40,154 nt of DNA from an uncultured Gemmatimonadales bacterium (GCA_937982605.1 CALJLC010000342.1:1-40154), one strand, 5' to 3'. Shown: positions 15,166 to 24,252, counted from the stretch's first letter. Translations and numbers: made by a program. Notes: a model not told the origin generated them from the sequence alone.

Positions 15166-15516
15166 ATGGCACGGATGAAGGACGTGAAGGCGATCGTGAG
15201 GACGGAGTGTGTGGCCGGGCTGCTCGAGGCGTTGAAGGAGTCCGGGGTGTCACGCTTCTACCTGTCCAAGGTCCACGCGATCGGACGCGGGGTGGATCCG
15301 GACGACTACAAGCTCTCGCTGGACGAAGGAAGCGCATACACGGAGAAGACCGCGGTCGAGTTCGTCTGTGCCGCGAGTCGGGCTCAAGAGCTCATCGAGG
15401 TCATCCGAACGTGGGCCGGCACCGGCCGCCGCGGGGACGGCATCGTCATCGTCTCGGACGTGTCCGACGTCGTCAACGTGCGCACGGGCGACCACAACCG
15501 GATCGCTTTGCTCTGA
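15166..15516 (+). CDS. PII (GlnB)-like signal-transduction protein
   Basis: 116 aa. MKDVKAIVRTECVAGLLEALKESG... and the C-terminus GRRGDGIVIVSDVSDVVNVRTGD follow the PII fold signature (G-DGKIFV...IRTGE). The T-loop region is divergent. Confidence 0.7.
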   Translation: MARMKDVKAIVRTECVAGLLEALKESGVSRFYLSKVHAIGRGVDPDDYKLSLDEGSAYTEKTAVEFVCAASRAQELIEVIRTWAGTGRRGDGIVIVSDVSDVVNVRTGDHNRIALL

Positions 15517-15525
15517 GGAGAGGCA

Positions 15526-15807
15526 ATGACGACGATCGCGCAAATCGGTGTCCCGATGTCGGAGCACGGCGGCGGGCTCTTCATGGGGATGCACTGGCTC
15601 TGGTGGGTCGCCTGGCTCGTCACGTTCCTCGGTATCGCCTGGGCGGCGGCCCGCCTGTACCGTGATCGGAGCGAATCGCAGCGTCGGCGGGCGTCGGAGG
15701 ACGCCGCCGAGCAAGTGCTACGCCGCAAGTTCGCCGAAGGAGAGATCGACGAAGACGAGCTCGCTCGGCGACTCCGCGTTCTCAGGGAGACTCAGGGCGG
15801 CTCGTGA
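15526..15807 (+). CDS. SHOCT-domain small membrane protein
   Basis: One TM helix (MHWLWWVAWLVTFLGIAWAAA), then a SHOCT-type C-terminus (LRRKFAEGEIDEDELARRLRVL). Confidence 0.65.
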   Translation: MTTIAQIGVPMSEHGGGLFMGMHWLWWVAWLVTFLGIAWAAARLYRDRSESQRRRASEDAAEQVLRRKFAEGEIDEDELARRLRVLRETQGGS

Positions 15808-15853
15808 CGATGACGTTCCGCCACCCCCACCACCCGTACCAGAGGAGAGACCC

Positions 15854-16012
15854 ATGGCTGTGAAAGACCCCGTGTGTGGCATGGAGATCGAGCCGGAGGA
15901 CGCAGTCGCCCGGGTGGAGTACGAAGGACGCGACTACTACTTCTGCAGCGAGTCCTGTGAGGAGGAGTTCAAGGAGAATCCCGAAGACTACGCGGAGTCG
16001 GAGGGACCCTAG
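15854..16012 (+). CDS. Stand-alone YHS/TRASH-domain metal-binding protein (52 aa)
   Basis: ATG 15854 preceded by AGAGGAGAGA. MAVKDPVCGMEIE...GRDYYFCSESCEEEF is the same motif as in the ABC ATPase tail. Below the ORF-track size cut as an independent gene. Confidence 0.75.
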   Translation: MAVKDPVCGMEIEPEDAVARVEYEGRDYYFCSESCEEEFKENPEDYAESEGP

Positions 16013-21342: not shown

Positions 21343-21347
21343 GCCGG

Positions 21348-22829
21348 GTGCTCACACTCGCGATCTTCGCACCGCTCGCCGGGGCCATGGTGCTCTTCCT
21401 GATTCCGGAGCGCCGTCCGATGCTGATTCGCGGCGTCGCTCTCGGGATCTCGCTCGTCCCGATTGTGTTTCAGGTTGCCACCTCGACGGAGTTCGACGCG
21501 ACGGGTGGATTCGAGCTGGTGGAGTCCGCCGCGTGGATCCCGACGCTGGGCGTGGCCTACATCGTGGGCGTCGACGGTATCTCGCTGCCGCTGGCCGCGA
21601 TGACCGCGCTCGTGTTCGTCGCCTCGATCGCCTATCCCGTGGACCTGCGAGGGAGACCGAGAGAGTACTACGCGCTCTTCCTGTTTCTCGAGTGTGCATC
21701 CCTGGGGGTCTTTCTCGCGCTCGACCTGTTCCTCTTCTACGTCTTCTGGGACGTGAGCCTGGTCGGCATGTACTTCCTGATCGGGGGCTGGGGGCACGGC
21801 GACTCGGCGAGACGGGCCGGGCTCAAGTTCTTCCTGTACACCCTGGCCGGCTCTCTCGCGATGCTTCTCGCGATCCTCGGCCTCTACCTGTCGATGGAGC
21901 CCAACACCTTCGACATGGCGGCGATCATCGACGCCCAGCCTCTCGGCGCGACGGGAATCCTCCCGGTCCTCGTGTTCACGGGCTTCGCCCTGGCCTTCGT
22001 GGTGAAAGCTCCGCTCGTGCCGTTCCATACGTGGCTTCCTCCGGCTCACGTCGAAGCGCCGGCTCCGGCGTCCGCCATCCTCGCCGGGGTGCTGCTCAAG
22101 ATGGGGACGTACGGCTTCGTGCGGATCCTCCTCCAGATGCTTCCCGAGGCCTTCCAGAGATTCGCCCTGCCCCTGGCCGTTCTCGCGCTGGTCAGCATCC
22201 TCTACGGCGCCCTGGTCTCGCTGGCCCAAGGGCACATGAAGCGCCGGATCGCCTACACGAGCGTCAATCACATGGGGTACACGGTGCTGGGCGTCGCGGC
22301 GGCCGCCGCCGCGCTCTCGGGGGTGGAGCGCGCACGGGCGCTCGCGCTGACCGGTGCGGTCGTGGAGATGGTGGCGCACGGGCTGATCACCGGCGCGCTG
22401 TTCCTCGTCAGCGGCTCGGTCTGGCGCAGGGCCGAAACCTACGAGATCGAGGACTTCGGGGGCCTCGCCGGGCGTGCCCCGTTCCTCATGTTCCTGACCG
22501 CGATCGCCGCCTTCGCGAGCCTCGGGCTGCCCGGCCTGGCAGGGTTCGTAGCCGAGTTCCAGATCTTCGTGGGCACGTTCGGCGTGTTCCCCTGGATCGC
22601 GGGGCTGGGGCTGCTCGGGATCCTGATCACCGCCGCGCTCTTCCTCCAGATGCTGCAGAGGATGTTCCTCGGGGCCCGGCCGCAACGCTGGGACCAGTGG
22701 GAGCCCCTGTCGCGGACCGAGGCCTGGGCGCTGTCGACCCTCCTCGCGTTCGTGGTGCTGATCGGCGTCGCGCCTTCGTGGCTCCTCGAGGTCATCCACG
22801 CCACGAGCACCGCAATCGTCGGCCCCTGA
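21348..22829 (+). CDS. nuoM: NuoM/ND4-like antiporter-type subunit
   Basis: Motifs GVDGISLPLAAMTALV and VVKAPLVPFHTWLPPAHVEAPAPASAILAGVLLKMGTYG. The TM5 motif reads FWDVSLVGMYFLI. Confidence 0.9.
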   Translation: MLTLAIFAPLAGAMVLFLIPERRPMLIRGVALGISLVPIVFQVATSTEFDATGGFELVESAAWIPTLGVAYIVGVDGISLPLAAMTALVFVASIAYPVDLRGRPREYYALFLFLECASLGVFLALDLFLFYVFWDVSLVGMYFLIGGWGHGDSARRAGLKFFLYTLAGSLAMLLAILGLYLSMEPNTFDMAAIIDAQPLGATGILPVLVFTGFALAFVVKAPLVPFHTWLPPAHVEAPAPASAILAGVLLKMGTYGFVRILLQMLPEAFQRFALPLAVLALVSILYGALVSLAQGHMKRRIAYTSVNHMGYTVLGVAAAAAALSGVERARALALTGAVVEMVAHGLITGALFLVSGSVWRRAETYEIEDFGGLAGRAPFLMFLTAIAAFASLGLPGLAGFVAEFQIFVGTFGVFPWIAGLGLLGILITAALFLQMLQRMFLGARPQRWDQWEPLSRTEAWALSTLLAFVVLIGVAPSWLLEVIHATSTAIVGP

Positions 22830-22833
22830 CTTC

Positions 22834-24252
22834 GTGAACGGCATGCGTCTCGGGGACATCGCCCCCGAACTGGTCCTGCTGGGGGGAGGGGTCGTCGTGC
22901 TGCTGTATGCGCTGGCGGCCCCCAGGAGGCTGCAAGCGGGTGCGTCGGTCCTGGCGACGGTAGTCCTGGCAGCCGCGGCCGTGCGCACCACGACCATGCT
23001 CGACGTCGAGGAGACTCTCACCTTCGCCGACACCTACGCCGTGGATGGTCCGGCCCTCTGGGCCAAGCTGATCATCCTCGGTACGGCGCTCCTGACGGTG
23101 GCGCTGTCCACGCGCTGGTTCGCCTCCGACCCCCGCCGCGGGGAGCTCTACGCAATCCTCGTCTTCTCGACCCTCGGAGCGGTCCTTCTCGCGGGGGCGA
23201 CGGACCTCATGCAGCTCATTCTGGCGGTGCTGCTGGCGTCCGTCACCGCCTACGTGCTGGCGGCCTACCACCGGCGCTCCAAGATGGCCGGCGAAGCAGC
23301 GCTCAAGTACTACCTCCTGGGCGCCCTCACGAACGGAGGCATGCTCTACGGTACCGCATTGCTCTTCGGCCTGGCCGGCACGACGACCCTGGTCGGGCTC
23401 GCGCAGAACGTCGAGCCCGCCACGGGTTGGGTGGCGGCGACGGCGTTCGCGCTCGTCGCGCTCGGGCTCTCGTTCAAGGTCGGCTCCTTTCCCGCGCACC
23501 CATGGGTTCCCGACGTCGCCGAGGGTGCTCCCGCCCCGATGGCCGCCTTCCTCACCGTGGTGGGCAAGGTCGGGGCCCTGGTGGCGCTGGCACGCCTCGC
23601 TTCGGTCCTGCCGGCGGATACGGTCGGCTGGCGTCCGCTCCTCGCGCTGCTGGCAGCGGTGTCGATGACGCTCGGAAACCTCGCGGCGCTCACGCAGGAG
23701 GATGTCCGGCGGCTCCTGGGGTGGTCCTCGGTGTCACAGGCCGGGTACGCGCTCATGGCGCTCGTCGCGCTGCAACGGAGCGAGCTTGCGGTCCCGGCCC
23801 TGCTCTACTTCCTGCTCGCGTACGCGTTGGCGAACCTGGCCGCGTTCGGCGTCGTGGTCCGGCTCCGGGGACTGACGACCCGGTCCGACTACCGCGGGCT
23901 GGCCCGCCGGCGCCCGCTCCTGGCGGGAGCGCTGGCCCTGTCCTTCCTCTCGTTCATCGGCATCCCCCCACTCGCCGGCTTCGCCGGGAAGCTCGCCCTC
24001 TTCGCGGCCACGATCGAGGCCGGATACACCTGGCTGGCCGTGCTGGCGGCAGCGAACACGGTCGTGTCCGTCGGCTACTACGCCCGCGTCCTCGCCCCCA
24101 TGTACTTCGACGAGGCCTCCGGGGACTTCCCGGCATGGGACGCTGTGGCCGGCTGGGCGACCGCGATCGCCGTGATCGGCTTCGTGGTCGCGGGCCTCGG
24201 AGCCGAGGCGGTTCTCGACGCCCTCGTCGGGCTGCCCCTTCTGCCGAGATGA
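22834..24252 (+). CDS. nuoN: NuoN/ND2-like antiporter-type subunit
   Basis: Motifs GEAALKYYLLGALTNGGMLYG and SFKVGSFPAHPWVPDVAEGAPAPMAAFL. Last gene of the operon; the next gene is convergent. Confidence 0.9.
   Translation: MNGMRLGDIAPELVLLGGGVVVLLYALAAPRRLQAGASVLATVVLAAAAVRTTTMLDVEETLTFADTYAVDGPALWAKLIILGTALLTVALSTRWFASDPRRGELYAILVFSTLGAVLLAGATDLMQLILAVLLASVTAYVLAAYHRRSKMAGEAALKYYLLGALTNGGMLYGTALLFGLAGTTTLVGLAQNVEPATGWVAATAFALVALGLSFKVGSFPAHPWVPDVAEGAPAPMAAFLTVVGKVGALVALARLASVLPADTVGWRPLLALLAAVSMTLGNLAALTQEDVRRLLGWSSVSQAGYALMALVALQRSELAVPALLYFLLAYALANLAAFGVVVRLRGLTTRSDYRGLARRRPLLAGALALSFLSFIGIPPLAGFAGKLALFAATIEAGYTWLAVLAAANTVVSVGYYARVLAPMYFDEASGDFPAWDAVAGWATAIAVIGFVVAGLGAEAVLDALVGLPLLPR

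Follow-up and report, generated by a model that had tools for sequence, protein, structure and literature searches.

The window analysed here, a stretch of 40,154 nucleotides from an uncultured soil bacterium of the Gemmatimonadales, holds at positions 15166–24252 an operon of eleven same-strand genes whose nine-gene core – as its profile matches and synteny identify it – is a conserved, unnamed family derived from respiratory complex I. The alignments show a complex with no recognisable site for NADH, flavin, Fe–S clusters or quinone chemistry, which, lacking these, cannot act as a redox-driven pump. The first gene of the family operon encodes a small YHS protein, a conserved and obligatory partner of the family. 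We propose, with a probability of roughly 0.45, that the complex may be a redox-free translocator of Cu(I), coupled to the proton-motive force (pmf) and loaded by the YHS protein; a role in metal translocation would draw support from the YHS linkage, from an apparently methionine-lined E-channel and from the copper neighbourhoods of family loci.

An earlier note on this DNA had already described a self-contained, apparently redox-dead complex-I-like module with no assigned function and no described link to PII/YHS proteins or a copper regulon. Both parts of this description held, the former in that no cysteine of the peripheral-arm remnant is conserved and the motif of the quinone-site His is changed, the latter in that open-access papers and bioRxiv yielded no description of the family or of a link between YHS proteins and complex I. 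A 2025 hidden Markov model census of Nuo variants groups such cases only as ‘incomplete’ (PMC12361115).

The operon and its gene products

All eleven reading frames are intact and show translational coupling, with 4-nt overlaps at 17641, 18570, 19127 and 19429 and short gaps elsewhere (Table 1), and the seven core membrane subunits – A, H, J, K, L, M and N – are all matched by Pfam and NCBIfam models. Open reading frame (ORF) calls and searches with these profiles reproduced the gene list, gaps and overlaps of the earlier note, save for the start of the fused NuoB/NuoD gene, which it had put at 16403, 54 nt off the mark: the most likely start is a TTG at 16349, overlapping the nuoA stop by 10 nt, because the resulting N-terminus, MGLTAFARLAAKAPAPVF, fits the homologues and because the same gene call stands on an identical public contig. 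An identical 7.9-kb contig belongs to an uncultured Gemmatimonadales metagenome-assembled genome (MAG); among the family loci, L005 is identical to the window. Exact-sequence look-up of the window’s PII protein led to identical contigs, which were used for annotation; the same look-up with the window’s NuoH matched no record.

It had also been claimed that NuoC, E, F, G and I are missing from the operon and that the next gene is convergent. So it proved: profile searches matched none of these families in the operon or anywhere in the 40-kb window, and gene 24299–25765 runs towards nuoN. The same searches, together with the family alignment, found no cofactor-binding motif in any of the eleven operon products, and NuoC, NuoI and a NuoEFG-type input module are likewise absent from the 47 complete family operons.

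A NuoB–NuoD fusion stripped of cofactor ligands

The peripheral arm survives as one protein in which remnants of NuoB and NuoD are fused. In an alignment of 24 homologues (45–62% identity), not a single cysteine is conserved, and the position of the NuoB ‘SMGSC’ motif holds none in the fusion. In a profile comparison with solved structures, the N-terminal third matches NuoB/PSST over the ‘LRKVYDQMPEPR’ helix alone; the NuoB alignment covers residues ~10–67 only, the remainder matching parts of NuoD/NdhH. In that remainder, the GPxHPxxHG motif carrying the quinone-site His of NuoD has become GPFFPxFPPGL, with loss of the His; the segment aligning to NdhH residues 41–100 – which presumably holds the quinone-site Tyr – has shrunk to ~29 profile positions; and the C-terminal SIDxxxGExDR reads SLDLDLEE. 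Aligned in this way, the fusion shows no conserved cofactor ligands.

The AlphaFold2 model of the fusion is confident, with a predicted local distance difference test score (pLDDT) of 85.8 and a predicted template modelling (TM) score of 0.84, and its best structural matches are NuoD/NDUFS2 chains, at a TM score of ~0.5. The main low-confidence stretch of the model, residues 116–140, is the Gly-rich linker between the B-like and D-like halves, which probably becomes ordered only when the membrane subunits or a ligand are bound. A set of relatives only ~340–370 aa long, shorter than the fusion itself, match the profile in two or three separate stretches; these may be a divergent subfamily or intermediates toward canonical NuoB and NuoD.

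A membrane arm partly kept and partly rebuilt

Alignments of 35–75 sequences for each subunit were mapped onto solved complex I/NDH-1 subunits. In NuoL (transmembrane helices are here numbered TM1, TM2 and so on), E130, K208, H233, H317, K321, H333 and K375 are invariant and the full pattern of TM5 Glu, TM7 Lys and TM12 Lys or Glu is present. NuoM keeps K220, K251, H308 and E403, its acidic residue in TM5 being Asp135 and not Glu, and NuoN keeps K215, K245 and K386, its TM5 Glu being replaced by Leu134 (Leu in 41 of the 45 sequences, by alignment to NdhB). In the small subunits, the carboxylates E35 and E73 of NuoK and D67 and E69 of the NuoA FDxE motif are kept. The TM1–2 loop of NuoA is an invariant HAWxRxHxRYY and the TM5–6 loop of NuoH is preserved as PDxxDLAGGTxxExxG; the ‘SYE’ and ‘AETNR’ stretches of NuoH, which are presumably the site of the canonical E-channel glutamates, are not conserved in the family. 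The earlier statement that the proton-pathway residues are retained therefore stands for NuoL, NuoK and NuoA and falls for the Leu of NuoN TM5, the Asp of NuoM and the NuoH stretches, and it passed over a heavy remodelling of A, J and K.

In complex I, ND3, ND6 and ND4L form the E-channel together with part of ND1, TM3 of ND6 being its gate, and the TM3–4 loop of ND6 communicates with the TM1–2 loop of ND3 (PMC10212512). The corresponding NuoJ TM3 region of the family has ten methionines in 28 residues, and M62, M63, M67, M70, M74, M78, M79, M87 and M89, together with E66 and H91, are invariant. Where the family has M62, M63, E66, M67, M70, M74, M78 and M79, Nqo10 of Paracoccus denitrificans has V, Y, A, V, L, V, L and D; M63 replaces the conserved gating Tyr at the pi-bulge, and by the 3.6-residue periodicity of a helix M63, E66, M67, M70, M74 and M78 fall on one face. 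Further family-specific, invariant methionines surround D67, E69 and E90 of NuoA (Met68, 70, 73, 91 and 93), and NuoK contributes, next to E35 and E73, Met29, 31 and 70, family-specific and invariant or nearly so, with Met37 and 67 less strict. Altogether, ~17 invariant, family-specific methionines in NuoA, J and K stand at positions that are aliphatic, Tyr or Arg in canonical subunits. Methionine makes up 6–8% of A, J and K, against 1.5–2.4% of H, L, M and N of the same operons and 2–4% of the canonical comparators. The family's counterparts of the E-channel, its gate and the two communicating loops are, along with the Gly-rich loop of the fusion, its most conserved parts.

Distribution of the family and its obligatory partner

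More than 550 relatives of the fusion, all unnamed or ‘hypothetical’, are present in a 90%-clustered protein collection, and the fusion family comprises 374 clusters at 50% identity (E ≤ 1e-30). When one genome of each GTDB species was scanned, 118 carrier species turned up, all of them MAGs, in Gemmatimonadota, Chloroflexota (Limnocylindria, Tepidiformales, Dehalococcoidia and Anaerolineae), Acidobacteriota and Actinomycetota (Acidimicrobiia, Thermoleophilia/Gaiellales and Nitriliruptoraceae), with single bins labelled Cyanobacteriota and Myxococcales. Across ~80 non-redundant loci from at least five phyla, the order YHS–nuoA–BD–H–J–K–L–M–N does not vary; all nine core genes are present in 47 loci, and YHS lies directly 5′ of nuoA in each of the 70 loci that reach far enough, at a median gap of ~8 nt. 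The YHS protein combines a C-X22-C-X3-C arrangement with DPVCGM, and its C8, C31 and C35 are invariant in 75 sequences.

The earlier note had placed PII-like, SHOCT and YHS genes side by side at the head of the operon as potential controllers of the complex, and of the three only YHS has kept its place in the wider family. Among the ~80 surveyed loci, PII occurs only at L005 and L052, and it is found also on the related contig L089, which confines it to the window clade and one further Gemmatimonadales locus; the SHOCT upstream gene is restricted to the window clade, its orthologue adjoining PII in L089. PII and SHOCT are thus clade-specific add-ons and not obligatory partners, and PII-gated control as a property of the family was rejected, PII being absent from nearly all loci and its control a local feature at most. 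The window’s PII-like protein itself scores far under the GlnB/GlnK equivalog cut-offs and so belongs to a divergent PII subfamily.

The same distinction emerges from a 29-kb relative contig (L091 1–17750 plus L089 10001–13753), on which the copper island is rearranged. Its L091 part has eight nuo-like genes directly after copABCD–DUF4198–...–cytochrome c, without a YHS gene of their own, and in its L089 part the orthologous PII–SHOCT–YHS trio, whose YHS protein is 86% identical, has remained next to the MacB operon and is followed by a Fer4_20/Pyr_redox_2 (GltD-like) gene. The structural genes can therefore move within the copper island, and again neither PII nor SHOCT is obligatory.

Links to copper genes

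That the operon shares its operator with copABCD, as had been proposed, is borne out by the distribution of the element: three TTCAY direct repeats with 11-bp spacing occur at 11 sites in the window, where 0 are expected, and all sites are intergenic and lie 16–120 nt upstream of start codons. One unit so headed consists of copA (a multicopper oxidase) followed by copB, copC and copD, all four confirmed. Others are a porin-like gene with a cytochrome c gene after it, a MacB-type ABC transporter with a C-terminal YHS domain on its ATPase, a beta-CASP metallo-beta-lactamase gene, a GAPDH-like/ICMT-like pair and the DUF5676/ABC1-kinase unit, in addition to LTXXQ and AhpC/TSA-like genes. A spacing of one helical turn between direct repeats is characteristic of sites for OmpR/PhoB-type regulators, and we infer an operator architecture of this type, with a putative OmpR-family binding site; pairs of an OmpR-type regulator and a kinase lie beside 13 family loci. 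The recurrence of the operator, which the earlier note had wanted surveyed, extends to the PII orthologue in L089, to copA in L091 and, in the Longimicrobiales locus L027, to a YHS-domain gene that precedes YHS–nuoA.

Copper-related genes also recur around the family at large. Among the two nearest upstream genes of ~60 loci are multicopper oxidases (four), extra YHS genes (four), RND genes (three), CopY/BlaI-type repressors (three), cupredoxin-like genes (three), CopD (two), ZIP (two) and ArsR (two), and on the downstream side the first three genes of 36 loci include OmpR-type regulators (five), cupredoxin-like genes (five), RND genes (three), SHOCT genes (three), P-type ATPases (two) and plastocyanin-like genes (two), the RND counts on both sides taking in pumps of any type, whether of the metal-exporting HME type or not. 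By tblastn with a wider gene set – multicopper oxidase, P1B-ATPase, CopC/D, cupredoxin, RND, ArsR and Met-rich protein – a copper or metal gene lies within 10 kb at 28 of 80 loci, and at 14 of the 30 loci of at least 15 kb, an ‘enrichment’ in the sense of raw counts. The association with copper genes is a strong tendency, not a rule. PII proteins of the window type are found within an OEP–CusB–CusA–PII–P1B ATPase–DUF411 cluster (L090 8001–8354) and in an RND–PII–YHS–complex arrangement (L052 8894–9235), which suggests a PII clade associated with metal efflux.

Comparison with known machines

By its subunit sequences, the family descends from complex I/NDH-1 and fails its defining redox features. 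It shares with complex I orthologue-level A, H, J, K, L, M and N in nuo order, the lateral extension of NuoL, the NuoK and NuoA carboxylates, most of the antiporter Lys/Glu/His residues and the NuoH TM5–6 and NuoA TM1–2 loops; among solved structures, A, K and N come closest to cyanobacterial NdhC, NdhE and NdhB. Unlike complex I, it has no N-module, NuoC or NuoI; its NuoB and NuoD are shrunken, fused and devoid of the N2 cysteines and the quinone-site His; its E-channel has invariant methionines; the TM5 Glu of NuoN is gone; and YHS is added.

The closest mechanistic match is Mrp (MrpA–G), likewise a redox-free member of the complex-I superfamily, in which cation transport depends on the pmf and on antiporter-like subunits. 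The path of Na+ through Mrp runs in a small-subunit region homologous to NuoJ/NuoK (PMC9568556). In contrast to the family, Mrp has no NuoH, NuoA or NuoB/D, relies on MrpB/E/F/G, contains two antiporter-like subunits instead of three, binds Na+ through oxygen ligands and lacks a YHS partner; for the L, M and N subunits of the family, Nuo models outscore Mrp models.

The energy-converting hydrogenase-related (Ehr) complexes, reportedly described by Coppi in 2005 and Marreiros in 2013, resemble the family in having NuoD-like and NuoB-like subunits without catalytic metal ligands, but they are of the group-4 [NiFe]-hydrogenase lineage, with fewer membrane subunits and presumed redox partners, whereas the family has the full Nuo-type set and the B–D fusion. 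Kinship with Ehr or group-4 hydrogenases, which the earlier note had suggested, was rejected on profile scores and fold: the membrane subunits score as true Nuo/Ndh orthologues, and the fusion best matches NuoD/NdhH/NDUFS2.

Complex-I antiporter modules are re-used for non-redox vectorial chemistry also in DAB (DabA/DabB) and cyanobacterial NDH-1MS/CupA, beside whose genes PII-like regulators are sometimes encoded; their substrate, however, is CO2/HCO3−, their partners are others, and DAB has one antiporter-like subunit. Finally, the Met relay of CusA (RND) and the MxxxM channels of Ctr1 resemble the family in their stacked, conserved TM methionines near carboxylates. In CusA and Ctr1 such methionines form the Cu(I)/Ag(I) path, and CusA is pmf-driven; the folds are unrelated to that of the family, and the likeness is chemical only.

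A possible mechanism and its rivals

Without a redox drive, the pmf would be the sole available energy source, so a Mrp-like way of working is to be expected. Protons would flow inward through L, M and N, in which most of the Lys/Glu/His relay is kept, and this flow would drive conformational changes in the NuoA/J/K region. That region may form a path lined by thioethers and carboxylates – a ladder of methionines in NuoJ TM3 with further clusters by the Glu and Asp residues of NuoK and NuoA – of a kind that would suit soft monovalent cations, Cu(I) and Ag(I) among them. Thioether ligands beside carboxylates are a signature of Cu(I)/Ag(I) paths, for example in the CusA relay, and from this lining, combined with the cation route of the Mrp type, Cu(I) is proposed as a substrate passing through A/J/K to the periplasm. 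From the YHS protein, Cu(I) would pass to the cytoplasmic interface made up of the Gly-rich loop of the fusion, the NuoA TM1–2 and NuoH TM5–6 loops and the Met/His-rich TM3–4 loop of NuoJ – in true complex I, the corresponding interface loops couple quinone chemistry to pumping – and the ion would be expelled to the periplasm, export being favoured over import. The operon would be switched on together with copABCD, the YHS-bearing ABC transporter and other units through the threefold TTCAY operator, probably by an OmpR-family regulator. In its fullest form – the E-channel as a Met-lined Cu(I)/Ag(I) conduit, YHS loading at the former quinone-module interface and three antiporter modules as the power source – the proposal is tentative, and slightly less probable than the translocator reading in general.

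A number of points weigh against a copper translocator. Loss of the NuoN TM5 Glu, with the unconserved NuoH stretches, may mean that the proton route is interrupted. That the methionines would line one continuous path we infer from helical periodicity and from homology to residues facing the E-channel; the strongly conserved cavity loops could equally well be fit for an organic ligand, and YHS domains can be mere structural zinc ribbons. On the genomic side, no gene for an OmpR/PhoB-type regulator is encoded in the window; the beta-CASP, GAPDH-like and ABC1-kinase members of the regulon have no obvious metal role, and the regulon may be a broader envelope or metal stress response. The RND neighbours, as counted, may include types other than the metal-exporting one, and about half of the well-flanked loci lie amid housekeeping genes (RNA polymerase, tRNA synthetases, Lgt).

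The same machine might also run in reverse, as a pmf-driven system for Cu(I) uptake or for supplying membrane cuproenzymes, YHS then being the acceptor and not the donor. The evidence from architecture is the same for both directions; copC and copD, whose products (CopCD/YcnJ) are usually regarded as copper importers, adjoin the operon here and at several loci, and genes for copper-requiring cytochrome c, multicopper oxidase and cupredoxin are nearby. We nonetheless consider import unlikely: co-regulation with the resistance genes copA and copB and with a putative HMA ATPase at the window end, as well as the RND and P1B exporters among the neighbours, points to detoxification, and in antiporters of the complex-I superfamily an inward pmf naturally drives cation export. 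A little less likely again is a generic Mrp-like Na+/K+/H+ antiporter or pH-homeostasis device, with YHS as a structural zinc ribbon and the copper context incidental. The complex would then be redox-free as Mrp is, with conserved antiporter-like subunits, and its many loci in housekeeping contexts would come as no surprise; however, the ~17 invariant methionines of A, J and K would be unaccounted for, hard cations preferring oxygen ligands, as would the strict YHS linkage, the enrichment of copper genes and the operator shared with copABCD.

The complex might still be a redox enzyme in which an unrecognised cofactor or partner – a metal centre on the three YHS cysteines, a cytochrome c, a cupredoxin or a multicopper oxidase – exchanges electrons at the old quinone site. 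The high conservation of the cavity-forming NuoA and NuoH loops fits this idea, as does the cytochrome c gene directly before nuoA in L091, and for Ehr-type complexes external redox partners are commonly assumed (PMC6349859). Yet the fusion is without conserved Cys/His cluster ligands, its Q-site His is lost and its NdhH 41–100 segment shrunk, and genes for NuoI and NuoC are missing; cytochrome c and cupredoxins reside in the periplasm, across the membrane from the cap, and a lone mononuclear site in a protein of ~50 residues cannot stand in for a chain of Fe–S clusters, all of which makes electron transfer improbable. Still less probable is a non-transporting membrane copper sensor, sink or scaffold, such as a Met-rich Cu(I) buffer or a conformational sensor with PII as its signalling partner. 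For simple sequestration of Cu(I), Met-rich segments can suffice, and the window clade does have a PII-like signalling protein, but PII is absent from most family loci, and three complete antiporter-like subunits, with an invariant relay and the NuoL lateral extension kept across phyla, would be a costly way to build a sink. As for a functionless, decaying remnant of a duplicated nuo operon, to which the degenerate peripheral arm might point, the intact frames, translational coupling and strict synteny, together with hundreds of invariant residues across five phyla and ~370 clusters at 50% identity, effectively refute it, and identification as a pseudogene was rejected on that conservation across phyla.

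Significance

Few energy converters have been studied as intensively as complex I, and there is still no agreement on how its coupling works. To our knowledge, redox enzymes are the only known relatives in which the NuoH/NuoA/NuoB/NuoD junction persists, and the only accepted redox-free relatives, the Mrp antiporters, are without that junction; the present family keeps the junction and its mobile loops yet discards every cofactor. Whatever its substrate, it would offer a simplified natural system for studying transmission from the Q-site interface to the antiporters. Should it indeed move copper, it would represent a new class of pmf-driven heavy-metal pump, and the three mechanistic classes of copper exporter in bacteria (P1B-ATPases, RND pumps and multicopper-oxidase/Cop systems) would be joined by a fourth; a metal ion could then serve as the trigger in studies of the coupling between Q-site loops, ND6 TM3 and the antiporters, and there would be an explanation for a gene cluster conserved in uncultured lineages that abound in soil and groundwater (Gemmatimonadota, Chloroflexota, Acidimicrobiia).

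Further features of the window

Table 1. Coordinates of the operon genes, operator copies and associated features in the window
Feature	Position	Strand	Remarks
YHS-bearing ABC ATPase	11757–12653	−	Accompanied by 10951–11760 and 12650–14889 (two FtsX/MacB permeases, LolA-like protein)
Second operator copy	14982–15008	−	One mismatch; faces the divergent MacB-type ABC transporter operon
Operator TTCAT-N6-TTCAC-N6-TTCAC	15054–15080	+	86 nt upstream of the PII gene
PII-like protein, 116 aa	15166–15516	+	PF00543, E 1e-11, 45.3 bits (gathering cut-off 25)
SHOCT-like single-TM protein	15526–15807	+	Weak C-terminal SHOCT match, 19.8 bits (gathering cut-off 27), E 7e-4
YHS/TRASH protein, 52 aa	15854–16012	+	PF04945, E 7e-18
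NuoA/ND3 homologue	16014–16358	+	Pfam/NCBIfam profiles
NuoB-remnant/NuoD-remnant fusion, 431 aa	16349–17644	+	Partial PF00346 match and NuoB-family match
Gly-rich linker WRGVGPYGQGGxGMTGGxPYGRP...DRDGLxLD between B-like and D-like halves	16754–16864	+	Invariant, 24/24 sequences
NuoH/ND1 homologue	17641–18573	+	Pfam/NCBIfam profiles
NuoJ/ND6 homologue	18570–19130	+	PF00499, E 1e-23
NuoJ Met-rich TM3 and TM3–4 loop LMMAGEMxxMAxxMVMxMMNPAGLNPMxMVHQxR	18753–18851	+	Invariant in 62–64 of 64 sequences
NuoK/ND4L homologue	19127–19432	+	Pfam/NCBIfam profiles
NuoL/ND5 homologue, full-length C-terminal extension	19429–21342	+	NF005141, 309 bits, residues 31–630
NuoM/ND4 homologue	21348–22829	+	Pfam profile
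NuoN/ND2 homologue	22834–24252	+	TIGR01770, 331.6 bits (cut-off 332.6)
Operator copies before beta-CASP, GAPDH-like and DUF5676/ABC1-kinase units	27903–27929; 27969–27995; 32911–32948	−; +; −
Second stand-alone YHS gene with its own operator	39549–39788		Followed by a weak HMA-domain ORF (39785–40060) running toward the window edge

Scans at the ends of the operon for a consensus sigma-70 promoter and an intrinsic terminator found neither. The convergent gene that follows (24299–25765) is kept at 75% identity in the closest relative, L001; it was rejected as a member of the system, being conserved only there and unrelated to the post-nuoN gene of L089/L091. The HMA-domain ORF near the window edge is probably the start of a P1B-type copper ATPase. 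On the other flank, the MacB-type unit with the YHS-bearing ATPase, divergent from the operon, is conserved in L089/L091.

The SHOCT-like protein of the operon has a His/Met-containing N-terminus, SEHGGGLFMGMH, ahead of its lone TM helix; SHOCT-domain proteins, some fused to cupredoxin-like domains, also recur downstream of family operons (L038). The ICMT/PEMT-like membrane methyltransferase of the window (29145–29765), a member of the TTCAY regulon, has counterparts near eight family loci (L071, L073, L081, L051, L067, L074, L044 and L014), often as the divergent first upstream gene. Lastly, a PLD-like (PLDc_2) gene is found both in the window (33628–34944), 9 kb downstream of nuoN, and in L001 (9009–10310), where it lies directly downstream.

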